Part shown: piece after piece, positions 6,733 through 64,000 of the stretch
Numbering within the stretch: the first letter of the stretch is position 1
How the letters are laid out: every line of letters begins with the position of its first letter
DNA from: Escherichia phage Killian
Sequence record: OQ446694.1
DNA length: 64,000 nt
Reading direction: 5' to 3' (one strand)
The notes under the pieces: generated by a model
Seen by the model: only the letters and a program-made list of their open reading frames with translations
The model's database searches: none
What the model was told of the DNA's origin: nothing
Program-made: the position numbers and the translations under genes

Positions 6733-7368
6733 TCACAGTTCAGATGCTACAGTGATTACAGCTTCAATGTTTTCTGCCGAGCGTTTAATGTCAAGATACA
6801 CATTACCGTTTTTAGCGATTTTACATGACATTCCGATATCAGTAAATTTCTGAATATGATGTTCCATCATTTTGTATCCAAAAATTCGCATATTTCCATT
6901 GTTATTAATTTCAAAATTACGAATTCCGTGAGTGCGTTTTTCTAAAATAGCAAGATAGTTACTGCGGTAAGTTTCAACCTTTTTAAGAACAAATCCATTT
7001 TCATCTAAAAGTTTTAGCATAAGGTCTTTATCTTCTTCCATATCAGAAGTAATTTCGCGAGCTTTACGAGTTGCTCGTTTTTTCAGCAGTTCCGGAGCGT
7101 TTTCCTGTGCGTATAAAGTTGCTGCATTTGAAATAATATCCTGAGCTTCACCAGTAATGATTAATCCATCACCAGATTTCTCCACCAGGCCTTTTTTAAT
7201 CAATACCCCAATATTACTATTAACTACTGCGTTACCTAAATCTGGATGCACCTCACGAACTTCTGCAGCTGTAATGAAATCTTTCTTAGCAATGGTAATT
7301 AAAATCGCAGCAGTTTTTTCATTCAGAATATCGTTAGAAGCTTTGATGATGTAAGTTACTTTAGACAT
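6733..7368 (-). CDS. motA: Middle transcription activator MotA (211 aa)
   Basis: MSKVTYIIKASNDILNEK...AVITVASEL matches T4 MotA as recalled; SD GGAG. Confidence 0.95.
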   Translation of the reverse strand: MSKVTYIIKASNDILNEKTAAILITIAKKDFITAAEVREVHPDLGNAVVNSNIGVLIKKGLVEKSGDGLIITGEAQDIISNAATLYAQENAPELLKKRATRKAREITSDMEEDKDLMLKLLDENGFVLKKVETYRSNYLAILEKRTHGIRNFEINNNGNMRIFGYKMMEHHIQKFTDIGMSCKIAKNGNVYLDIKRSAENIEAVITVASEL

Positions 7369-7406
7369 TTTAATCTCCGTTTCAGTTCATTTATTTGATA
7401 GGTCTA

Positions 7407-7435
7407 TAGTATCATGTTTAAAGCAGAAGTAAACA
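7407..7435 (-). promoter_or_regulatory. Early sigma70-type promoter upstream of motA
   Basis: Minus strand reads GTTTAC-17 nt-TACTAT, followed by a conserved leader and SD; module repeated elsewhere in the window. Confidence 0.55.
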
Positions 7436-7473
7436 CTTTTTTGCACTCTTTTTCAAGAGCTCTAATAAAGTAC

Positions 7474-7701
7474 TTACTTAATGTTCAGATTACGAACTTC
7501 GATTTCGTCTTCATGGGCAAAATCAAACTGTTTGAATTCTGTGTCACCTTTAAATTTAAAAATCATTGTGAAGAAAGTCAGAACACCAGGTTTTTCTTCA
7601 CGAACTCCACAGATATCATATTCAATACCATCTACAACCAGTTTGTTAGCAGTCAGAGCATTTTTAGCTTTAACGATTTCGTTTTCGATTTTAAATTTCA
7701 T
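7474..7701 (-). CDS. Hypothetical protein (75 aa)
   Basis: ORF track, ATG start with SD GGAG; lies between 52 and motA. Confidence 0.5.
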   Translation of the reverse strand: MKFKIENEIVKAKNALTANKLVVDGIEYDICGVREEKPGVLTFFTMIFKFKGDTEFKQFDFAHEDEIEVRNLNIK

Positions 7702-7750
7702 TTTTTGTATCTCCGGGTTGTTTGTTTCAGTTCATTTATTTGATAGTTGT

Positions 7751-7780
7751 ATAGTACCACAGTATGCTTTGGTTGTAAAC
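7751..7780 (-). promoter_or_regulatory. Early sigma70-type promoter
   Basis: Minus strand GTTTAC...TGgTACTAT; shares a 21-bp leader repeat with the motA promoter module. Confidence 0.55.
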
Positions 7781-7810
7781 CGTTTTGTGAAAAAATTTTT
7801 GAAATAAAAA

Positions 7811-7832
7811 AGGGAGAGCCGAGGCTCTCCCT
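7811..7832 (-). terminator. Rho-independent terminator hairpin
   Basis: GGGAGAGCC/GGCTCTCCC stem followed on the minus strand by UUUUUAUUU. Confidence 0.6.
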
Positions 7833-7836
7833 AAAA

Positions 7837-7986
7837 TTACTGCATGACTGTGATAACTGTCATGATAACACGTTGAATTCCGAACGCAAGAAGACCTCCT
7901 GCTACGGCAGGAACAACACCTAAACCCGCCAGTAAAATGCCACCAGATACTAATGCAGCGCTTGTGATACCAATGAATGGACTCAT
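7837..7986 (-). CDS. Small hydrophobic peptide (49 aa)
   Basis: Hand translation MSPFIGITSAALVSGGILLAGLGVVPAVAGG...; ATGA overlap with gene 52 stop. Confidence 0.4.
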   Translation of the reverse strand: MSPFIGITSAALVSGGILLAGLGVVPAVAGGLLAFGIQRVIMTVITVMQ

Positions 7987-9311
7987 TTGATTTCCTCTAA
8001 ATCTTTGGTGTATTCGGTAACTACATCAGTAGTTTTCCAATATTCGTTTTCTTCTTTCTTAGCTTTAGCTTCTTCAGCAAGTTTCTTTGCTTCGTCGGAA
8101 GTCATATGAAAAATATTCATTCCGACTAGTTTATCAACATAAGAAGAATACATATCAATTTTAGAAAGTTCTTCGGTCAGTTCTTTACGAGTTTTACCCT
8201 GTACAACAATTTCACCTGAAATTACTTTCTTAATGAAATGTGCCTTGGCAAAGGCTAAACGAAATGCTGATTCAGTTTCTTTGATTTTATTATCAATTCG
8301 TTTTTGGACATAAGTTTTACGAACTTCAACGAAGTCTTTGATTAAATCAACTACGTTATCGTAAACTTGCAGCTTTCCTTTCTCATTAATGACGGTAATA
8401 TTCTGTGAACGACGCTCAATCAACCCGAAGTCTTTCATGATTTTTGCATGGCGTTCTTCTTCATTATCGCTCAAAGAATATTCTTTACGGAATTTAACTT
8501 TAAAGCCAAAACCATGCTCGCCACAAGCATCATCCCATGTAATGAAGCCTTTATCTTCAAGCGGGTCTAAGATTTTACTCACATAAGTTTCACGATCATA
8601 CTTATACGGAATCTCAGTGATATTCATTTGAGTTCGTGAAGTAAACTTGTACGTTCCACGAATTTCATATTGACCGTCAATTTCAACGACTTCACCACGA
8701 AATTCTGGGAATTCTACCTTCGGTTTAGTTACTTTCTTTCCTTGAAGAGCTTGTAATACAGCTTTCTTGACAGAAGAAACGCTATGAGGAAGAATGTAAG
8801 TTGCATAACCAGTTGCAATACCGGAAACACCATTAAGAAGAACGGTAGGAATAATAGGCAAATAGAAAGCAGGCGGAATGTGTTCTTTATCTTGATGTAC
8901 CGGAGCATATTCAGTATCTTTATATACGCTATAGAAATTTTTACTTACACGAGCAAAAATATAACGACTTGCTGCTGCTTTTTGAACGGTACGAGAACCA
9001 AAGTTTCCTTGACCATCTAACAAAGGAAAGTTATTATTCCAGGTGTTAGCCATCAAAGCCCCCGCATCTTGTGCAGAGTTTTCACCATGATGATATCCAA
9101 GGTCAGCTACACCACCTGCAATAGAAGCAAGTTTGTGAAACTTATCTTTATTTCCTCGCGCCAAATCAAGAGCTCGAGCAATAACAAATCGTTGAACTGG
9201 CTTAAATCCATCAATCATATTTGGAATAGCACGATTTTCAACCGTGTACATAGCATAAGCCAGTGCTTCATTATCAATGATACTTTTTAAATCGCGATTA
9301 TTCAGTTGCAT
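7983..9311 (-). CDS. 52: DNA topoisomerase II medium subunit gp52 (442 aa)
   Basis: MQLNNRDLKSIIDNEALAYAMYTVENRAIP...; GyrA-like breakage-reunion region; size and synteny as in T4. Confidence 0.93.
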   Translation of the reverse strand: MQLNNRDLKSIIDNEALAYAMYTVENRAIPNMIDGFKPVQRFVIARALDLARGNKDKFHKLASIAGGVADLGYHHGENSAQDAGALMANTWNNNFPLLDGQGNFGSRTVQKAAASRYIFARVSKNFYSVYKDTEYAPVHQDKEHIPPAFYLPIIPTVLLNGVSGIATGYATYILPHSVSSVKKAVLQALQGKKVTKPKVEFPEFRGEVVEIDGQYEIRGTYKFTSRTQMNITEIPYKYDRETYVSKILDPLEDKGFITWDDACGEHGFGFKVKFRKEYSLSDNEEERHAKIMKDFGLIERRSQNITVINEKGKLQVYDNVVDLIKDFVEVRKTYVQKRIDNKIKETESAFRLAFAKAHFIKKVISGEIVVQGKTRKELTEELSKIDMYSSYVDKLVGMNIFHMTSDEAKKLAEEAKAKKEENEYWKTTDVVTEYTKDLEEIK

Positions 9312-9695: not shown

Positions 9696-10150
9696 TAGTA
9701 TGCCTGCAAAACAAATTTAAAGTTATCAGCCAACATACGATTCATTTCTTCAAGCGTTTGATACTCAGAATGATGATTACGAGTAAACGCTAAAGCTAAC
9801 TGACCTTTTCCAAATCCCGTCGTCAGAGGTTTCATCTTAGAAGCAGGTAGATAAAATACCGTGTATGGAACATTGTTATTTGCAATAGTACGCGCAAGCT
9901 GAGATCGACGCTGGCGAATATGACTTAGAACTGCACTGAACCCTTGCTTAGAACGCTGATTACCTACATAAAATCGTGCAGATACACACGGACTATCAAA
10001 TGGACCACCAAATTTGCTCACTAAAAAGTAAAATCCAGGGTTAGACAAAATGTCTTTATGTGGAGTTCCAAAAACCCATTCACCGCCCTTGATTGCACCA
10101 ATAACAGTTGCGCCTGCATTATTCAAATCAGTAACAGTCATATATTTCAT
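9695..10150 (-). CDS. ndd: Nucleoid disruption protein Ndd (151 aa)
   Basis: 151 aa, [18 protein letters not shown]...; size and synteny with stp and ac. Confidence 0.85.
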
Positions 10151-10207
10151 GTTATTTTCCTCTAATTATTTTCTACTCCAAGGCCGCATGAATACACGGC
10201 CGATAAA

Positions 10208-10423
10208 TTAATCGTCGCAGTCGACGATTAATTCCCAGAACTCTTCTACAGTATAAGTTTCAGTATCATTTTCAATACAGAAACGTTCATTACTGTTATT
10301 TGCTAAAGTAGCGTTAACTGTCATTTTCTCGCTAGTGCTTTTAAGAGGTGAAATACGAATTAACTGATCACCATTATCTAAACAGAAAATTTCACCGACC
10401 TTTACATCTTTAAAAATTTTCAT
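10208..10423 (-). CDS. Hypothetical protein (71 aa)
   Basis: ORF track, ATG start; ndd.x-type ORF. Confidence 0.5.
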   Translation of the reverse strand: MKIFKDVKVGEIFCLDNGDQLIRISPLKSTSEKMTVNATLANNSNERFCIENDTETYTVEEFWELIVDCDD

Positions 10424-16104: not shown

Positions 16105-16134
16105 ATTATACCACATCCTTGTGGTAAAGTAAAC
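16105..16134 (-). promoter_or_regulatory. Early sigma70-type promoter (near-consensus)
   Basis: Minus strand GTTTAC-18 nt-TGgTATAAT; the -35 overlaps the gene 39 stop codon. Confidence 0.6.
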
Positions 16135-54690: not shown

Positions 54691-56504
54691 TGGTGTTTAA
54701 CCCTATGCATGATTTCTTTATTTTTGCCGAGATTAAATCCGCGTTCATTCGGATTTCCCAAATAACCACAAGTTCTTCTTATTGTGTTCATCTTTTTAGG
54801 ATCAGTTTCTCCACAAATAGAACAAACAAACCCGTTTTCAGTAGGAGTCATTTCATGGGTACTTCCGCATGTAAAACATTTATCTACTGGCATATTAACA
54901 CCAAAATAATCTAAATGTTGTGCAGCATAATCCCATACAGCCTCAAGACCTTTTAGGTTATTTTTCATATCAGGAAGTTCAACATAAGAAATGTGACCAC
55001 CTGTCGCAATGAAATGATATGGGGCTTCGCGAGAAATCTTTTCAAATGGAGTAATATTTTCTTCTACCGAAACGTGGAAACTGTTAGTGTACCAGCCTTT
55101 ATCGGTAACATCTTTTACACTTCCATATTTTTCGGTATCAAGTTTACAGAAGCGATAGCACAGGTTTTCAGCAGGTGTAGAATACAAACTAAAAGCAAAA
55201 CCGGTTCTTTCAGTCCACTGCTTAAGATGAGCATTCATTTTAGTTAAAATTTCTTGTCCAATATCACGACCGACAAGAATATTCAATTCGTGAATACCAA
55301 TGTATCCTAGGGACACTGAACTTCTACCGTTTTTAAATAACTCAATTATATCGTCATCAGGTTTAAGACGAACCCCGAATGCACCTTCTTGATAAAGAAT
55401 AGGAGCAACAGTCGCTTTAACTCCTTTTAAGGAACTAATTCTACACATCAAAGCTTCAAAACACAAATCCATTCGTTCATTGAACAATTCAGCAAATTTC
55501 TGTTCATTGAACTGTGTTCCAATATAAGAATCTAGTGCAATGCGAGGAAGATTCAGTGTTACAACACCAAGATTATTACGTCCATCAAGAATTTCATTAC
55601 CAGTCGAATCTTTCCATACACCCAAGAAACTACGACAACCCATTGGAGAAACAGGAATAGATGAACCGGTGATAGCTTTATTGTTCTTAGCTGAAATAAT
55701 ATCAGGATACATTCTTTTGCTTGCACACTCTAGAGCAAGCTGCTTAATATCATAGTTTGGATCGTCTTTATAAAGATTAACACCTTCTTCAACGAACATA
55801 ACAAGCTTAGGGAAAATAGGAGTTATCCCATCACGACCAAGACCTTTAATACGATTTTTCAGAATTGCTTTCTGAATCATTCGTTCAGTCCAGTCAGTTC
55901 CCGTACCAAATGTAATTGTTACAAAAGGCGTTTGTCCGTTTGAACTAAAGAGAGTATTTACTTCATATTCATAAGCTTGGAATGCATCGTATACGTCTTT
56001 TTCTGTTTTAGACTGGGCGTAATTCAACGCATCAGCGATTTGCCATTTTTCTGCGTCCTCAATATGTTTTGCGTAGGTGCGTTTAACATAAGGAGAAAGG
56101 ACTTTATCTACATTCGCAAAAGTCGTTCCGCCATATTGATGGGAAGCAACCTGCGCAGTAATTTGTGCCATAATTGCAGTAGCAACGCCGATTGATTTAG
56201 GAGTTTCAATCTGCGCATTACCGAGCTTAAATCCATTCTCAAGCATTCCTTTTAAATCGACTAAACAGCAATTAGTAAAAGGCAATGATATACTGTAATC
56301 TAAATCATGAAAATGAATTAATCCAACATTATGTGCATTTACAATATGACTTGGAAGAATACGACAAGCGATATGTTTAGAAACAATACCGGCCATTAAA
56401 TCTCTTTTTGTTGGAAAGACACGAGAATCTTTGTTGGCGTTTTCGGTATTTAATTCTTTATCTTTATTTGAAATAAAATTTAAAACATCTTTCTCTAAAG
56501 ACAT
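54687..56504 (-). CDS. nrdD: Anaerobic ribonucleotide reductase NrdD, uninterrupted (605 aa)
   Basis: C-terminal zinc ribbon CFTCGS...CSICG and glycyl-radical RxCGY motif; continuous 605-aa ORF. Confidence 0.93.
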   Translation of the reverse strand: MSLEKDVLNFISNKDKELNTENANKDSRVFPTKRDLMAGIVSKHIACRILPSHIVNAHNVGLIHFHDLDYSISLPFTNCCLVDLKGMLENGFKLGNAQIETPKSIGVATAIMAQITAQVASHQYGGTTFANVDKVLSPYVKRTYAKHIEDAEKWQIADALNYAQSKTEKDVYDAFQAYEYEVNTLFSSNGQTPFVTITFGTGTDWTERMIQKAILKNRIKGLGRDGITPIFPKLVMFVEEGVNLYKDDPNYDIKQLALECASKRMYPDIISAKNNKAITGSSIPVSPMGCRSFLGVWKDSTGNEILDGRNNLGVVTLNLPRIALDSYIGTQFNEQKFAELFNERMDLCFEALMCRISSLKGVKATVAPILYQEGAFGVRLKPDDDIIELFKNGRSSVSLGYIGIHELNILVGRDIGQEILTKMNAHLKQWTERTGFAFSLYSTPAENLCYRFCKLDTEKYGSVKDVTDKGWYTNSFHVSVEENITPFEKISREAPYHFIATGGHISYVELPDMKNNLKGLEAVWDYAAQHLDYFGVNMPVDKCFTCGSTHEMTPTENGFVCSICGETDPKKMNTIRRTCGYLGNPNERGFNLGKNKEIMHRVKHQ

Positions 56505-57316
56505 AATTCTAATTTATCCTTTTGAAATTCTTCGTCTAAATATGGGTTCCAACCCATTTTAAACCTTTTGATGAAATTATCAATTCTAAATTTCGGTAAG
56601 TTTAAATCCGCAAAAATAGATGATTTACTTTTAAAATCTGGACCTAAATAATCATATAAAATTTCTGCGTATTTTAACCATAATATACAAGTACCAGATT
56701 TAATTGCTCTCGGAGTTTTCCAAGGTTTTACACCATACATCGGATTTCCACTTCCTTTATGCCTGATAGAAGATGAAATTCCAATTTTAATTTTAGCTTC
56801 CTTTGTATGCGAAAATCCACGATGCGGATTTTCTTTCCAGTATTTTTTAGAAGCTTCTGATATTTTCTTTCTGGCTAAATTAGTATGATGCTTTCCATAA
56901 AATCCATGATTTTTGCCTTTATTACGATTTCTTTTAATCATGGTTATTGATTGCTTTTCTCTAGTTTCTTTAGAAGGAGAAATACCATATGTCGTAAATT
57001 TGCCATCAGCATATGCTAAATTAAAATACTCTTTATTCCATACATCTTTTTCTATATTCTTTTGAAATTCAGCTTCAATGCTAGTTATTTGTTCATCTCC
57101 GACTAATTGAAAATATAATATTTCAACTTTCGGCGTTTCTTTCAACAGGGCTTTTTGAAATTCGGAAGATGACGAAGACGAATAATAAAATTTACCATTT
57201 TTATCAATAATATTCGTTCCGTCAAAAGTGCAATTGGTTTTACTTCCAATATAATAATATGGTGGGGTTTTAGCATTAATTCTACTAATAAATGATAGTT
57301 TATATACTACATTCAT
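56495..57316 (-). mobile_element. Free-standing GIY-YIG-like (Seg-type) homing endonuclease gene (273 aa)
   Basis: N-terminal VVYKLSF...YYYIGSKT and NUMOD-like repeats KNHGFYGKHHT, GSGNPMYGVKPW; overlaps nrdD start by 10 nt and gene 49 stop by 4 nt. Confidence 0.6.
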
Positions 57317-58768: not shown

Positions 58769-59158
58769 TTAATTTCGCAATTTATTAAGTTCTTCATAAT
58801 CAATCCAGGATTCTAGTCCTGATGGCAAATCAGATTCAATTTCCCAAAGAAGTTCTTCAATTTTCTGAAGACGATCTAATTCTTCAGCAGGAATAGTAAC
58901 CATTGACGGAGTTCTTGATACGCTAATATCGTAAATCATATTTACCCCCAGTTTGACCATACAATCGCCATATTTCCATTTAGAAATAGACTTTTCACCA
59001 TTAGAATAATAAACTTCAAGTTTAGCACGATTATTTTTAATTTGAATAACCTTTGCTGTCATCAAAGTTCCATACCCATAATAAACTGCAACCTCATCAC
59101 CTACATATACCGCGCTTCCGCGGTAGTCATGGATATAATCAGTTCCTTCGAGCATCAT
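58769..59158 (-). CDS. Hypothetical protein (129 aa)
   Basis: ORF track, ATG start; 4-nt overlap with nrdC. Confidence 0.5.
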   Translation of the reverse strand: MMLEGTDYIHDYRGSAVYVGDEVAVYYGYGTLMTAKVIQIKNNRAKLEVYYSNGEKSISKWKYGDCMVKLGVNMIYDISVSRTPSMVTIPAEELDRLQKIEELLWEIESDLPSGLESWIDYEELNKLRN

Positions 59159-59662: not shown

Positions 59663-59966
59663 TTTCTTCTCGGTTAAATCGGTGTTTGCAATGACGACAT
59701 TTATATTCAAGCTCTGGTTTACGCCAGTTAATCAATTGGACCTGTTCAGTACCACATTTTGGGCAGTTCGGAACATTCTTAGAAGCCCTTTCGCGACGTT
59801 CAACCATAGCCATAATGGCATCCCAAGCTGGAGGTTTAAAATCTAAATCGTCACAACCATGAATCTTTCCACGCATTTCCAGATCGTCTTCTTCACCAGC
59901 CATAATAATTTTAATTAGACTGGAATTACTTGAAGCTGCAATATCTTCTAATAAGCGCTTTTTCAT
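59649..59966 (-). CDS. Zinc-ribbon protein (105 aa)
   Basis: CPKCGTEQ...CRHCKHRF four-cysteine ribbon; ATG start. Confidence 0.5.
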
Positions 59967-60892
59967 TTCAATACCTCAATAGCATTACGTAAACCATTTG
60001 CTTTTGCATTAAGAGCTTTTAACAATTTGGTGTGCTCTTCAATCTGTTTTTCAACTTCAATTAAACGTGTATTAAGATATTCGCGTTCTTCACTCAGGTT
60101 ATCAATCTTTTCTACTTTAGGTTCTTTTACAACTGGCTTATATGTATTAGGGTTCTTCAGTTTAATTAGAATGCGTGAACTGTACAGCATTGAACCATTA
60201 TCTTCGGTTTCGTCATACATTTCAACTACGTCCATCATCTCCACCATCGTGCAGAGTTTATAAGACAACGAACGAATAGTTTTGTTGTGCTTATTAATTT
60301 CTCTAGCTGTCATGGTGCCGAGATTACGTGAGTAATAATAAGGAACCTGGATATTAATTAATACTGATGAACCACCTGGCTTGTGTGTTACTTCATCAGC
60401 AATAACCCAGTCCTTAACATGAACTGTATTTGTACGGTCATCACCTGCAGTAAATAGTTTACGAGCATGCTTAAAAAGCATATTCACTTGGTCATTGAAT
60501 TGACAAGCAAATTTATCAGCAAATTTAGTTTCAGGAATGGTAGATAACCAATCAGCCAAATGGGTCTTTTTAACATCGTTAACAATAGTAAATTCAACCA
60601 AATCAGTTATAGATGTCTCAGATTTAATAAAGCTCGGCTTCATAAAGTTTTTAATGTTATCACGAGCTATCACAGAAGATAGTAATCGGGAACGTTTGAA
60701 CCACTCTAGCAAAGAACCAAGAGAATGTGAATACGCATTTTGTGTATCTTTACAAATATGGTTTTCCCATCCAATATAGTCTAAAAAATCACGAAGAATA
60801 TTATTGATTACTGCTCTGTGTCCTATCTGATAATTACGATGTTTAGTAATAAGACTGTCAAAATAATCAATATAATGTTTACGAGTTTTCAT
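59963..60892 (-). CDS. Paralog family member 1 with C-terminal coiled coil (309 aa)
   Basis: Shares KxSRLLSxxxxRDxIxNF and LFKxxRKLxxxGDD-type blocks with the next three ORFs; heptad-rich C-terminal 40 aa. Confidence 0.55.
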   Translation of the reverse strand: MKTRKHYIDYFDSLITKHRNYQIGHRAVINNILRDFLDYIGWENHICKDTQNAYSHSLGSLLEWFKRSRLLSSVIARDNIKNFMKPSFIKSETSITDLVEFTIVNDVKKTHLADWLSTIPETKFADKFACQFNDQVNMLFKHARKLFTAGDDRTNTVHVKDWVIADEVTHKPGGSSVLINIQVPYYYSRNLGTMTAREINKHNKTIRSLSYKLCTMVEMMDVVEMYDETEDNGSMLYSSRILIKLKNPNTYKPVVKEPKVEKIDNLSEEREYLNTRLIEVEKQIEEHTKLLKALNAKANGLRNAIEVLK

Positions 60893-60944
60893 GTTCTTCT
60901 CACTTAGTTAATGATTTATACTCCGAGCCATCCTTGGCTTTAAA

Positions 60945-61946
60945 TTACTTAATTAACTGTAAAGCTTGTTCAAGACGATCCAGGCGATTAACAGATTCTT
61001 CCCAAATCCTTTTAGCCTGCTCATATTCTTTCTGCGCTTTATTAGAAATTTCTAGAGCTTCTTTATAAGCTTTTTCTAATGCAATAACTTCTGGACGAAT
61101 TTCTACCGATTCAGGTGAATCATCAAGATTATCCATTAGTTCCTCAAGGGTAGTTTCTTCTTTAGGAGTATTCACAATTTCCTCACATTTTTGTTGATAA
61201 ATTTCTTTATCAGTCGGTGAGTACGCGCACTTTACTTCACGAAGACTAACTACAATTTTGTATCCTTCCCAACCGCGCATATTTTTAAAAGGATAAGTAT
61301 AAATATTTTCTACTGTTTCCATACAAAGTAATGCGGTTTCTAATTGACGAGTTATAGTGCTAGCAATTGAGAAAAATTTATTAATATTCTTTTGGTTAGC
61401 GTCTGGTGTAAAAAATTCATAATTCACAAAAATAGCTGCTTTATTTTTATCAAGCTCGTATTCTTTTATGATAATCATATCAGAAGCCCAAGGATGAATT
61501 TGACGATAATCGCCATAGCATAATTTAGAAGCTGATTTTAGAATTTGCTTTTTGAAAAGTCTGAAATTACTAATCCAACGACGAGTAAAAATATTCTCAG
61601 GGTCTTCTTTATTATTAAGATGATAAGAATTAACATCACCGAACCAATTATATCCTACTACATCTTTGGTTCGTTTAATTTCTTTCCCAAAATTACCAAG
61701 AATATCTCGATTAACCAAATATGAAAGAAGACGAGACTCTTTAAAGGTTTTCTTGATAACATCTTTATCTACACGGCTAGAAATTTTACGAATTTCATGA
61801 ATAAATTTAGTAGAAGAAACAATACCTGCATCAACACTATTGAGCCATTGATTGATAATAGAAATAACGCTATTTTGACCAAACATCGGTATAGCTTTAT
61901 CATCAATAACACTATTGAATGATTTGATATATTCGTTACGAGTCAT
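60945..61946 (-). CDS. Paralog family member 2 with C-terminal coiled coil (333 aa)
   Basis: ORF track trimmed to the ATG with SD GAGGAG downstream of the promoter; ESRLLSYLVNRDILGNF block. Confidence 0.55.
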   Translation of the reverse strand: MTRNEYIKSFNSVIDDKAIPMFGQNSVISIINQWLNSVDAGIVSSTKFIHEIRKISSRVDKDVIKKTFKESRLLSYLVNRDILGNFGKEIKRTKDVVGYNWFGDVNSYHLNNKEDPENIFTRRWISNFRLFKKQILKSASKLCYGDYRQIHPWASDMIIIKEYELDKNKAAIFVNYEFFTPDANQKNINKFFSIASTITRQLETALLCMETVENIYTYPFKNMRGWEGYKIVVSLREVKCAYSPTDKEIYQQKCEEIVNTPKEETTLEELMDNLDDSPESVEIRPEVIALEKAYKEALEISNKAQKEYEQAKRIWEESVNRLDRLEQALQLIK

Positions 61947-61974
61947 ATTAATCTCCTCAGTAGAAAGTAAGAAC

Positions 61975-62004
61975 ATTATACCACATCCTTGTGGCAAAGT
62001 AAAC
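61975..62004 (-). promoter_or_regulatory. Early sigma70-type promoter (consensus -10)
   Basis: Minus strand GTTTAC-18 nt-TGgTATAAT, nearly identical to the module at 16105-16134. Confidence 0.55.
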
Positions 62005-63032
62005 TAGTTCAGTGCATTTAGTGCATTGTTCAGTTTAGAACGTTGCTTTGTCAGATTTTGAACCCTTGACTGAGCTTGTTCTAACACCTTTTCAGCTTCT
62101 AGCACTTCATTGGTCGCTTTAACGAGTTCATCATCTACTGCCTTAAGAGACTTCTCAATCGCGTCAGCGTGCCATTTTTCTACAGGTTTAAAATTTGAAT
62201 TTTCAGTAGGAAGAAAACTCACTTTATTAAGTTTACATGCATCTATATTGCTTGAGCTATACATCCAAAATTTAGGATCGTTTGATGAGTAATTGGATAA
62301 ATTTAAATTTAAGTTATCTTGCACTTCCTGCTTTTTCTCTTGCGTGACTTCGTCCTTTCTCAAAAAATCGTATTTAAATGAAACGATCATATCAAGTTCA
62401 TACGTTGTTGTATGTTCCCAATTTCGCTCAAAACGAGGTAAAATCTTAGACTGAACAGCGGCAACAACATCCATATACTTAAATGCTTCTGTCAACTGTG
62501 ATTTAAGGCATTCGCAAATTGAAAGAGAATTTTTTGTATTAGGTTTAAAGCTAATTCGTGCAGTTCTATTATTTTCTTTTAATGGTCTTACTTCCATCTG
62601 AAGAGTATAACCATCAAATTTCAGGTTCTTTAAGTTAATGTCAGAACCTTTTAATCGACTAGCCGTCGACAAAATTTGCTTTAATTGTCTACGGAACAGA
62701 GCAATAAATCTCCATTCAATACGATAATGATTTGGATTGAAAAATCCAGATGATAAATCGACCTTACTTTGACCAACGCCTTGAACAAATAGAGGATTTT
62801 TATAATCAATAGTTTTACAGAAATCGGTGAGCTGCTCACGAGCCGTCATTTGTGTAATATACCCTGCTTTACTAAAATTACGCACCCATTCACTGCTATT
62901 CGTATACTTAAAGTGATGAATAACACGATTAACTTTATCAGGGTCTAAATTATTTTCACACAAAAATGTCATAACATCACGAGTATAACTGGCATTACGA
63001 ACCATATCTTCAATTTGAGAACGAGTTTTCAT
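62004..63032 (-). CDS. Paralog family member 3 with C-terminal coiled coil (342 aa)
   Basis: ORF track, ATG start; FIALFRRQLKQILSTASRLKGSD block aligns with member 2. Confidence 0.55.
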   Translation of the reverse strand: MKTRSQIEDMVRNASYTRDVMTFLCENNLDPDKVNRVIHHFKYTNSSEWVRNFSKAGYITQMTAREQLTDFCKTIDYKNPLFVQGVGQSKVDLSSGFFNPNHYRIEWRFIALFRRQLKQILSTASRLKGSDINLKNLKFDGYTLQMEVRPLKENNRTARISFKPNTKNSLSICECLKSQLTEAFKYMDVVAAVQSKILPRFERNWEHTTTYELDMIVSFKYDFLRKDEVTQEKKQEVQDNLNLNLSNYSSNDPKFWMYSSSNIDACKLNKVSFLPTENSNFKPVEKWHADAIEKSLKAVDDELVKATNEVLEAEKVLEQAQSRVQNLTKQRSKLNNALNALN

Positions 63033-63040
63033 GGTGTTCC

Positions 63041-63931
63041 TTAAGATTTAAGTAAATCAACAATTTTAATTAACTTTTCACGCTCAGATTTAGCTTTACT
63101 ACTCAATCCAGATAGTCTGAAAATTTCATCATCATATTGTTGAATAGAAATATTCAGCTCTTCAATCTGTTTATTAAAATAATCAATTTGTTCAGAATGT
63201 TTTTCGTTACTACGAACTGGTACAGGTTTCGTAGGCAATTTAGTTGAACTGGATTCATCCGGGCGATAAATTAAAATACAACTTGAACCAATAGGGCATT
63301 TTGCACCAGATGAATATTCTAATGTTCCAGCTTCTTTTAAAACTTCAAAAGCTAAACAGAGATGATGCCCCATATTAACATAATCTGTAGAGTGAGCTCT
63401 GATGTAATAATCGTCTCCACGAATACTAAATTTAAAGCATTTAAGGTCTTCTGTATTATTGGTCTTAAAAATCATTTGTTTATCTAGACCTTTAGCTAAT
63501 CGAGCGCCCAATGCTAATAATCGGCGTTGATTTTCCCACAAATCCGCAATCATTTGATCGAATGATAATTTTGGCATCAGTCGACCATAAAGGTCATATC
63601 CTTTATTATAATTACGAAGGATTTCACTCGCGTTAATACGAGACAATGCTCCAATTTTATTAAGGGCTTTCATAATGCGATTAGATAAACTCATTCCAGA
63701 CCCATTTGTTCGCTGCAAATGTTTTTCTAATCCAAATCCAATATCAACTTTAAACTTATCTAAAATTTCTGCATGAACATCTCTGTCAATAACATTCAAA
63801 TCCAAAGTTGGGTTAAATCTATGAAAAAATTTATCTGGCTCTCCACGGCGAAATACAGTCCATTCATTCATCATTTTTTTATTAGCTAAAGATTTAATTA
63901 CTGCATTGACATTATTAATTACTACTGACAT
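63041..63931 (-). CDS. Paralog family member 4 with C-terminal coiled coil (296 aa)
   Basis: ORF track trimmed from GTG to the ATG with SD GAGGAAA. Confidence 0.5.
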   Translation of the reverse strand: MSVVINNVNAVIKSLANKKMMNEWTVFRRGEPDKFFHRFNPTLDLNVIDRDVHAEILDKFKVDIGFGLEKHLQRTNGSGMSLSNRIMKALNKIGALSRINASEILRNYNKGYDLYGRLMPKLSFDQMIADLWENQRRLLALGARLAKGLDKQMIFKTNNTEDLKCFKFSIRGDDYYIRAHSTDYVNMGHHLCLAFEVLKEAGTLEYSSGAKCPIGSSCILIYRPDESSSTKLPTKPVPVRSNEKHSEQIDYFNKQIEELNISIQQYDDEIFRLSGLSSKAKSEREKLIKIVDLLKS

Positions 63932-64000
63932 ATTTTCCTCACTCAATTTCAATTTTACTAAATACACAGAATATGATTGAACAGACTACATAAGCGCCAC

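Follow-up and report, generated by a model that had tools for sequence, protein, structure and literature searches.

nrdC.3 to nrdC.6 of Escherichia phage Killian: four distant paralogs that may act as early inhibitors of host immune proteins

An evolved clone of phage T4 with a deletion of nrdC.5 does not plate on ECOR17 or on MG1655 carrying the ECOR17 dsr1 gene, and its plating is restored by deletion of dsr1 or by nrdC.5 expressed from a plasmid (Srikant, Guegler & Laub, eLife 2022, PMC9391042). The same paper calls nrdC.5 an early gene and counts it among the genes lost in evolved T4 clones, in which the deletions touched no essential gene. Dsr1 has a SIR2 domain and is presumed to deplete NAD+, and its tetratricopeptide repeat (TPR) sensor, common to Avs7 and to proteins with other effectors, is triggered by the phage major capsid protein (2026 preprint, PMC12803255). 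Here we analyze a stretch of 64,000 nucleotides from Escherichia phage Killian (OQ446694.1; hereafter the window), in which an ortholog of this gene stands in an array of four, nrdC.3, nrdC.4, nrdC.5 and nrdC.6. The window nrdC.5 has the position and length of T4 NrdC.5 (DUF7235, PF23882) and 94.7% protein identity to it, an identity from which we would expect the same anti-Dsr1 activity. The other three have the architecture of NrdC.5 and appear to be its remote paralogs, yet they fall outside DUF7235 and are filed in PF26897, PF26899, phrog_1435 and phrog_2257.

Two further systems are useful for comparison. DSAD1 of SPbeta-like Bacillus phages reportedly neutralizes DSR2, a SIR2-domain NAD+-depleting protein, by binding it, as cryo-EM papers are said to show. 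Neutralization by binding is also, by analogy, the working model that we propose for NrdC.5. However, there is no detectable sequence relationship between DSAD1 and NrdC.5, and DSR2 senses the tail tube protein whereas Dsr1 senses the capsid protein. DSAD1 is not known to have a coiled-coil tail or to stand in an array of paralogs. The T4 dmd-tifA-adfA 'anti-TA island' (TA, toxin–antitoxin) and the internal-protein (IP) locus resemble the array in that they hold small, dispensable early genes in hyperplastic regions, each directed against one host defense, exchanged among related phages and lost when phages evolve in the laboratory. Their genes are not known to be related to one another or to form one diverged paralog family, whereas the array proteins are larger (~300–340 amino acids, aa) and have a common coiled-coil tail.

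The third comparison concerns the DNA between the genes. For PeSL (promoter-early stem-loop) elements, a role in the modular shuffling of hyperplastic regions in T4-type genomes has been proposed (Arbiol et al., 2010; Comeau et al., 2014; PMC2839356, PMC4122927). The element before nrdC.4 resembles these cassettes in its consensus, its stem-loop and its setting among accessory genes; the element before nrdC.3 differs in being decayed, and the term 'nrdC' is absent from the 2014 paper (PMC4122927). The array elements are known here from sequence, as candidate recombination sites. What is already known, then, is the four genes and one function, that of T4 nrdC.5. The paralogy across three database families may be new, and possibly so are their unification around a known anti-defense gene, the copy-number series and the PeSL framing.

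Relationship and architecture of the four proteins

The 4-kb segment that holds the array has 95–97% DNA identity to many Tequatrovirus genomes, and the window is itself a Tequatrovirus (T4-like) genome. Gene for gene, the array matches the annotated nrdC.3, nrdC.4, nrdC.5 and nrdC.6 of Shigella phage Shfl2 and T4, and the flanking T4 layout (gene 49 endonuclease VII, pin, nrdC, nrdC.1, nrdC.2) is kept. An earlier note on this DNA, written from the sequence alone, had described four consecutive minus-strand genes for proteins of 296–342 aa, and both the open reading frames (ORFs) and the match to the annotated T4 and Shfl2 genes agree with it (Table 1).

We find that the four genes are true, very distant paralogs, a conclusion supported by pairwise, profile–profile, bridging-sequence and predicted-structure evidence. 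BLASTP aligned nrdC.3 with nrdC.4 at 25% identity over 285 residues (E 1e-8) and gave nothing significant for the other five of the six pairs. Family alignments were built from relatives in the databases and from the genes at the syntenic position in other genera, and HHalign was run on the globular, N-terminal domains alone, with the coiled-coil tails removed. In this comparison nrdC.3 matched nrdC.4 with 98.5% probability, and nrdC.3/4 matched nrdC.5 with 92.7% (E 4e-7, 147 columns). Similarity beyond chance among the four is found by pairwise and profile alignment; its absence was one of two results that, according to the note, would refute the proposal. We regard the paralogy of nrdC.3, nrdC.4 and nrdC.5 as close to certain.

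The HHalign matches cover exactly two motifs, which correspond to the short common blocks that the note had reported. Motif 1 reads SRLLSSVIARDNIKNF in nrdC.3 and SRLLSYLVNRDILGNF in nrdC.4 and is degenerate in nrdC.5 (GYITQMTAREQLTDF) and nrdC.6 (ALSRINASEILRNY); in the alignments it is collinear in all four proteins as SR-h-h-s-x-h-x-x-R-[DE]-x-L-x-N-[FY]. Motif 2 forms a block in each protein (FRLFKKQILKSASKL, LFRRQLKQILSTASRL, VNMLFKHARKLF, NQRRLLALGARLAKG), with VNMLFKHARKLFTAGDDR as the nrdC.3 form, and is collinear as F-x-x-x-F-x-x-x-x-x-x-[IL]-L-x-x-[AG]-x-[KR]-L-x-x-G. The two proteins that begin with MKTR are nrdC.3 and nrdC.5; nrdC.4 begins with MTR and relatives with MITR or MNTRK, an N-terminus of the form M-(x)-T-R in these three proteins and their relatives. 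All four end in L-x-x-[AI]-[LIV]-x-x-L-K. Across nrdC.3, nrdC.4 and nrdC.5 the only invariant residues are T3, R4, F71, M187 and V190. Searches with hidden Markov models (HMMs) against all ORFs of the window and of the compared loci found no further paralogs; NrdC.10 and NrdC.11, of similar size, proved unrelated.

Pfam and PHROGs divide the array into three families. Both nrdC.3 and nrdC.4 belong to phrog_1435 (E 2.9e-116 and 5e-166, full-length), and we read their PF26897 assignment from the precomputed matches of relatives, which PF26897 has on all nrdC.4 relatives and on a nrdC.5::nrdC.3 hybrid (P0056, see below). nrdC.5 is DUF7235 / PF23882 over its full length (406 bits, E 1.5e-121; gathering threshold 30 bits) and phrog_2351. 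nrdC.6 is in phrog_2257 (E 9e-152), and PF26899 is precomputed on all 105 of its relatives. The DUF7235 / PF23882 model has no match at E <= 1 to nrdC.3, nrdC.4 or nrdC.6.

The relationship of nrdC.6 to the other three is the most distant one, and here a different explanation has to be weighed, namely that only nrdC.3, nrdC.4 and nrdC.5 are homologous and that nrdC.6 is an unrelated neighbor whose tail and size are convergent. This would fit its separate filing in Pfam and PHROGs, the lack of a significant pairwise BLASTP match to the other three, and a library-wide HMMER search in which the nrdC.3/4/5 profile retrieved no nrdC.6 family at E < 0.001. It would also fit the early family-level HHalign runs, in which nrdC.6 matched the other members with 3–27% probability (27.5%, P 6.5e-4, for the first profiles of the globular domains). 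However, after the profile was made more diverse by adding distant HMMER members (P0227, P0228, P0234, P0235, P0238) and Mosigvirus and Gaprivervirus orthologs, nrdC.3/4/5 matched the nrdC.6 profile with 83.8% probability (E 8e-6) over the two helix motifs, in the globular domain and outside the tail, whereas 62 control runs with reversed, column-shuffled or block-shuffled profiles reached at most 1.3% (E 0.04).

Independent lines of evidence agree with this match. The single family copy of Enterobacter phage IME523, gp085, is found with the nrdC.3/4/5 HMM (E 7.6e-18) as well as with the nrdC.6 HMM (E 3.4e-8), and its motif 2 (FCSEFNYNWRMILTLGSRLCVGSSRELEFKTG) mixes features of the two groups. 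The nrdC.6 model matches a 335-aa IME523 protein in BFVD (E 1.7e-7); gp085 is also 335 aa, and by this equal length the two are probably one protein. The AlphaFold models of nrdC.5 and nrdC.6, made from separate alignments, have an identical order of secondary-structure elements (helices, small beta unit, two helices, beta-hairpin, helix, beta-hairpin, disordered linker, long terminal helix), and both match BFVD A0A1V0DXL6, an uncharacterized protein of Yersinia phage fHe-Yen9-01 (E 4.6e-6 and 1.1e-3). The common C-terminal ending noted above points the same way, and the synteny slot is identical in every genus examined. Taken with these results, an unrelated nrdC.6 seems improbable to us, and we consider nrdC.6 very likely to be a paralog of the other three.

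The reference T4 nrdC.6 (NC_000866 ~10000-10230, compared with window 63041-63300) has a 1-nt deletion, GAGCTG-ATATTT against GAGCTGAATATTT. The resulting frameshift gives a 275-aa product that lacks the coiled-coil tail; apart from this, the sequence further downstream is intact. Laboratory T4 may carry a crippled nrdC.6, or the reference may have a sequencing error. Shigella phage Sf25 (P0122) has a 378-aa NrdC.6 variant.

Each protein ends in a heptad-rich segment, as the note had described: the four tails (46–59 aa) have a hydrophobic periodicity of 3.45–3.50 residues (p = 0.0002–0.0024 against 5000 shuffles) that exceeds that of every other window of equal length within the same protein, and AlphaFold predicts helices there in nrdC.5 and nrdC.6. 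The nrdC.3 tail aligns with the terminal helices of nrdC.4 and nrdC.5. An ad hoc a/d-core score was weak for nrdC.4 (z 1.5), because its core is rich in Ala and Tyr, and was replaced by the periodicity test. The nrdC.5 model (predicted local distance difference test, pLDDT, 73) has a helical N-terminal region, a beta-hairpin/helix/beta-hairpin unit, a disordered stretch at residues 228-278 and a helix at 283-341. In the nrdC.6 model (pLDDT 77) the terminal helix is kinked and has 53 residues by DSSP. nrdC.3 runs from a helical N-terminal region through motif 1, motif 2 and a beta/alpha/beta sub-domain to the C-terminal heptad helix. We propose that each protein would comprise a globular domain of ~220–250 aa, a disordered linker and the 46–59 aa C-terminal heptad helix, the globular domain being predicted to contain N-terminal helices, the two conserved helix motifs and a beta-hairpin/helix/beta-hairpin sheet. 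The coiled-coil tails probably drive oligomerization.

Copy number, early promoters and allele exchange

All relatives located by tblastn and Foldseek are in T4-like phages, those of Enterobacteriaceae, Yersinia, Klebsiella, Enterobacter, Erwinia, Pectobacterium and Acinetobacter. Searched by HMMER with the profile of the nrdC.3/4/5 domain, 1.84 billion representative proteins yielded 16 hits at E < 0.001, none of them bacterial, and no relative of known function or solved structure was detectable. The comparison across T4-like genera that the note had suggested gives a series from one to three to four copies in the slot between nrdC and nrdC.11. One copy is present in Kanagawavirus IME523 and in Marfavirus F48; Mosigvirus, Gaprivervirus, YenP8 and phage 212 (the last two without a genus) have three, made up of one nrdC.6-like, one nrdC.5-like and one nrdC.3-like or nrdC.4-like gene; Tequatrovirus has four. 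Among 50,697 phage records, nrdC.4, nrdC.5 and nrdC.6 are found at Tequatrovirus-level identity in ~465–500 and nrdC.3 in 653, including a T4-type allele at ~63% identity, and deletion variants of the array occur. One record (P0056) has a natural hybrid ORF in which the middle of NrdC.5 is joined to the C-terminal half of NrdC.3, which implies a deletion of nrdC.4 by recombination between paralogs. The array would appear to be an accessory, plastic locus made of four anciently duplicated copies of one gene restricted to T4-like phages.

The note had called the set fast-diverging. This holds between genera, where the family has 31–52% identity (nrdC.3, 77%) compared to 83–92% for gp49 and NrdC. 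Within the genus, dN/dS (nonsynonymous over synonymous substitution rates) between window and T4 is 0.12–0.41, against 0.01–0.02 for gp49 and NrdC, with no gene-wide positive selection. Protein identity between window and T4 is 93.7% for nrdC.4. nrdC.3 is mosaic relative to T4 (6934-7860 of NC_000866): residues 1–75 are near-identical (dS 0.045), residues 76–262 have dN 0.45 and dS 1.19, and the tail is intermediate. This pattern suggests that the central domain was exchanged between alleles and did not simply drift rapidly. In the phage collection nrdC.3 falls into identity classes of ~93%, ~75% (Mosigvirus) and ~63% (T4 type). Another record (P0233) has a NrdC.3 apparently translated from C-to-T converted (bisulfite-like) reads, with P>L, T>I, A>V and S>F throughout.

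One of the four genes had been credited with its own consensus early promoter, and this is the case for nrdC.4. The promoter, (G)TTTACT-17-TGGTATAAT, starts directly after the nrdC.5 stop codon, has 10/12 matches plus TG in a promoter scan and is 100% conserved in T4. It agrees with the PST/T4 PeSL consensus TTTACW-N17-TAYWAT with a stem-loop in the spacer (PMC4122927) and lies between accessory genes. The decayed element before nrdC.3 directly follows the nrdC.4 stop codon and agrees with the consensus in part only; its layout and AGGA loop are those of the intact elements before the paralogs of PhAPEC2, RZ and YenP8. The PeSL pattern occurs twice in the window compared to 0 expected by chance, the second, near-identical promoter/stem-loop (TTTACTTTACCACAAGGATGTGGTATAAT) being far from the array at 16105-16133 on the minus strand. 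Repeats of this kind could recombine with one another as cassettes are shuffled.

All three paralogs of Mosigvirus PhAPEC2 carry a PeSL of their own; the changes between their stems are compensatory, and the AGGA loop stays the same. Across phages and copies we observed the co-varying stems CCACA/TGTGG, AACCA/TGGTT, GCCA/TGGC, TCCA/TGGA and ACCC/GGGT; the AGGA (or AAGGA) loop and the GGAG that follows it are kept. This suggests selection on the hairpin itself, which may terminate transcription, affect RNA stability or mark a processing site.

Host takeover and counter-defense as possible functions

The note had guessed at a host-takeover or counter-defense family and could tie the genes to no characterized function. 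For nrdC.5 the second statement is outdated and the guess agrees with what has been published for T4 (PMC9391042). For nrdC.3, nrdC.4 and nrdC.6 the statement stands: no function is reported for them, in a full-text literature search nrdC.3 and nrdC.6 were absent from all papers listed, and nrdC.4 appeared only as the location of a single-nucleotide polymorphism in a genome announcement. Homology to a housekeeping enzyme, which would have spoken against the note's proposal, was not significant in any of Pfam, NCBIfam, PADLOC and PDB; sequence searches of these databases with the four proteins gave nothing above threshold and no enzyme or defense domain. A match of nrdC.3 to a XerD-type recombinase N-terminal domain (E 0.004; cut-off 279 bits), of the nrdC.4 tail to BrxC and of the nrdC.5 tail to PgrA were dismissed as chance or coiled-coil noise.

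We propose, with moderate confidence, that nrdC.3 to nrdC.6 are anciently duplicated, coiled-coil-tailed early inhibitors of host immune proteins. The family would consist of non-enzymatic, stoichiometric inhibitors, a reading we adopt because nrdC.3, nrdC.4 and nrdC.5 have few invariant residues and no enzyme-family matches. The globular domain, especially its variable central part, would contact the target, with avidity supplied by the coiled coil. We take the genes to be expressed early, from the promoter evidence and the early-gene label for nrdC.5 in PMC9391042: nrdC.4 has its own PeSL promoter, nrdC.3 has a decayed one, and nrdC.6 and nrdC.5 probably form one unit. The likeliest step for NrdC.5 would be binding to Dsr1 before the late-made major capsid protein triggers the TPR sensor. 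The other three paralogs would have diverged to other defense proteins or alleles, and the PeSL cassettes would let phages gain, lose and swap copies.

Several points weigh against this proposal. The rescue by NrdC.5 could be indirect, since Dsr1 binding is a step that we infer, and an immune role of nrdC.3, nrdC.4 and nrdC.6 is likewise suggested by paralogy. For nrdC.6, the link to the family comes from a profile match over 81 columns (84%), a single bridging sequence and the predicted topology. The conserved core of nrdC.6 reads LSRxNAxxILxNYNKGYDLYGR ... NQRRLLALGARLAxGxDKQMxFKTN, and its invariant polar block (NYNKGYDLYGR, NQRRLL, DKQMxFKTN) could belong to a catalytic or nucleotide-binding site and not to a variable surface for binding; because this core is so strongly conserved, we keep an enzymatic or ligand-binding role of nrdC.6 open. 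Oligomerization of the tails is a prediction, and the within-genus dN/dS of 0.12–0.41 gives no sign of gene-wide positive selection.

The main competing explanation is an indirect or non-immune role in host takeover, in which the four paralogs would be general factors binding host housekeeping proteins or nucleic acids and the effect of nrdC.5 on Dsr1 would be indirect, for example through a change in NAD+ metabolism, delayed exposure of capsid protein, or altered host EF-Tu or proteostasis. The mechanism of rescue is not reported in PMC9391042, and we found no follow-up literature on it, which leaves room for such routes. The nrdC.6 core is as highly conserved across genera as expected of a protein with a conserved host target, and the very weak XerD-type match of nrdC.3, far below the curated cut-off, could be read in the same direction. 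Yet the four proteins match no nucleic-acid-binding or enzyme domain, their copy-number plasticity and dispensability fit accessory, host-range genes, and a single gene complemented the defect on dsr1-carrying cells (PMC9391042). We judge both the general takeover role and its indirect routes unlikely.

Structural matches also raise the thought that the four are parts of the virion or of its assembly, akin to tail-terminator or tail-completion proteins, a reading to which we give almost no credence. The matches are limited to the sheet sub-domain, at 3–13% identity, and the genes lie in the early nrdC-mobD accessory region behind early promoters. They are dispensable, nrdC.5 having been lost in an evolved T4 clone in which no essential gene was hit (PMC9391042), and their copy number varies from 1 to 4.

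It is tempting to speculate further, within the proposal of immune inhibitors, that the array is a diversified 'anti-sensor' locus, in which one scaffold radiated into inhibitors of different host pattern-recognition proteins and PeSL cassettes act as recombination handles. Targets might include various members of the Dsr1/Avs7 family of capsid-sensing TPR sensors, which carry different effectors. Allele swapping would show itself in the mosaic nrdC.3, in the nrdC.5::nrdC.3 hybrid and in the series of 1, 3 and 4 copies. We offer this idea, its targets and its reading of the allele swaps as tentative, and somewhat doubtful, extensions.

Gene starts, neighboring genes and implications

The four gene starts adopted here are ATG codons, each preceded by a GAGG-type ribosome-binding site. 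The end coordinate of the array in the note, 63967, does not hold, being a GTG over-extension of nrdC.6; the TTG start of nrdC.4 at 61997 in a mechanical ORF list is likewise an over-extension, upstream of the promoter's -10 box. nrdC.6 and nrdC.5 are separated by 8 nt, a spacing that suggests they are probably co-transcribed.

Table 1. Positions of the array genes, their C-terminal helices and the PeSL elements (window coordinates unless a phage is named).
Feature	Position	Strand	Remarks
nrdC.3	59963..60892	-	309 aa; ORF; annotated in Shfl2 and T4
nrdC.4	60945..61946	-	333 aa; ATG start 61946; GAGGAG ribosome-binding site upstream
nrdC.5	62004..63032	-	342 aa; ortholog of the T4 anti-Dsr1 gene
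nrdC.6	63041..63931	-	296 aa; ATG start 63931; most divergent paralog
nrdC.3 C-terminal heptad helix	59966..60103	-	~residues 264-309, ending LRNAIEVLK; periodicity 3.45, p = 0.0024
nrdC.4 C-terminal heptad helix	60948..61094	-	~residues 285-333, ending LEQALQLIK; periodicity 3.45, p = 0.0002
nrdC.5 C-terminal helix	62007..62186	-	59 residues, 283-341; DSSP, pLDDT 78-93; periodicity 3.50, p = 0.0004; heptad z 3.4
nrdC.6 C-terminal helix	63044..63205	-	residues 243-272 and 278-295, ending LIKIVDLLKS; periodicity p = 0.0018; heptad z 4.5
PeSL early promoter of nrdC.4	61975..62003	-	TTTACT, 17-nt spacer with stem-loop CCACA-AGGA-TGTGG, extended -10 TGgTATAAT
Decayed PeSL-type element before nrdC.3	60915..60944	-	TTTAAA, 18-nt spacer with stem GCCA-AGGA-TGGC, TATAAA
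PeSL stem-loops compared	PhAPEC2 6850-9002; RZ 8880-8965; YenP8 8850-8924		

Many GenBank and UniProt records label nrdC.1 to nrdC.11, these four included, as 'thioredoxin'. Domain-family searches found no thioredoxin-like match for any of the four proteins, and the label appears to have been propagated from the gene-name prefix nrdC.

Two neighboring ORFs, both on the minus strand, deserve mention. The first (56495-57316, 273 aa) overlaps the start of gene 49 and carries a NUMOD3 motif (E 6e-7), a DNA-binding motif of homing endonucleases; it is not beside gene 49 in Shfl2, where nrdD directly follows, or in T4, where the joined nrdD coding sequence begins there. It is probably a mobile endonuclease insertion. 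The second (58769-59158, 129 aa) occupies the position of T4 gene 49.3 and matches DUF7205 (E 1e-10). Its similarity to the T7 gp5.9 RecBCD-inhibitor family is sub-threshold (E 0.0026, 18 bits; cut-off 24.5), and it is possibly another counter-defense gene.

Work on the arms race between E. coli and its phages has T4 as its reference, yet most genes of the T4 accessory regions are without a function. If nrdC.3, nrdC.4 and nrdC.6 are indeed paralogs of nrdC.5, the anti-Dsr1 gene, they become three concrete candidates for immune evasion, with the variable globular domain expected to carry target specificity. The PeSL cassettes offer a mechanism for the exchange of inhibitors, and this bears on predictions of host range for therapeutic T4-like phages. 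An anti-sensor locus, if true, would be a phage counterpart of the bacterial defense island.

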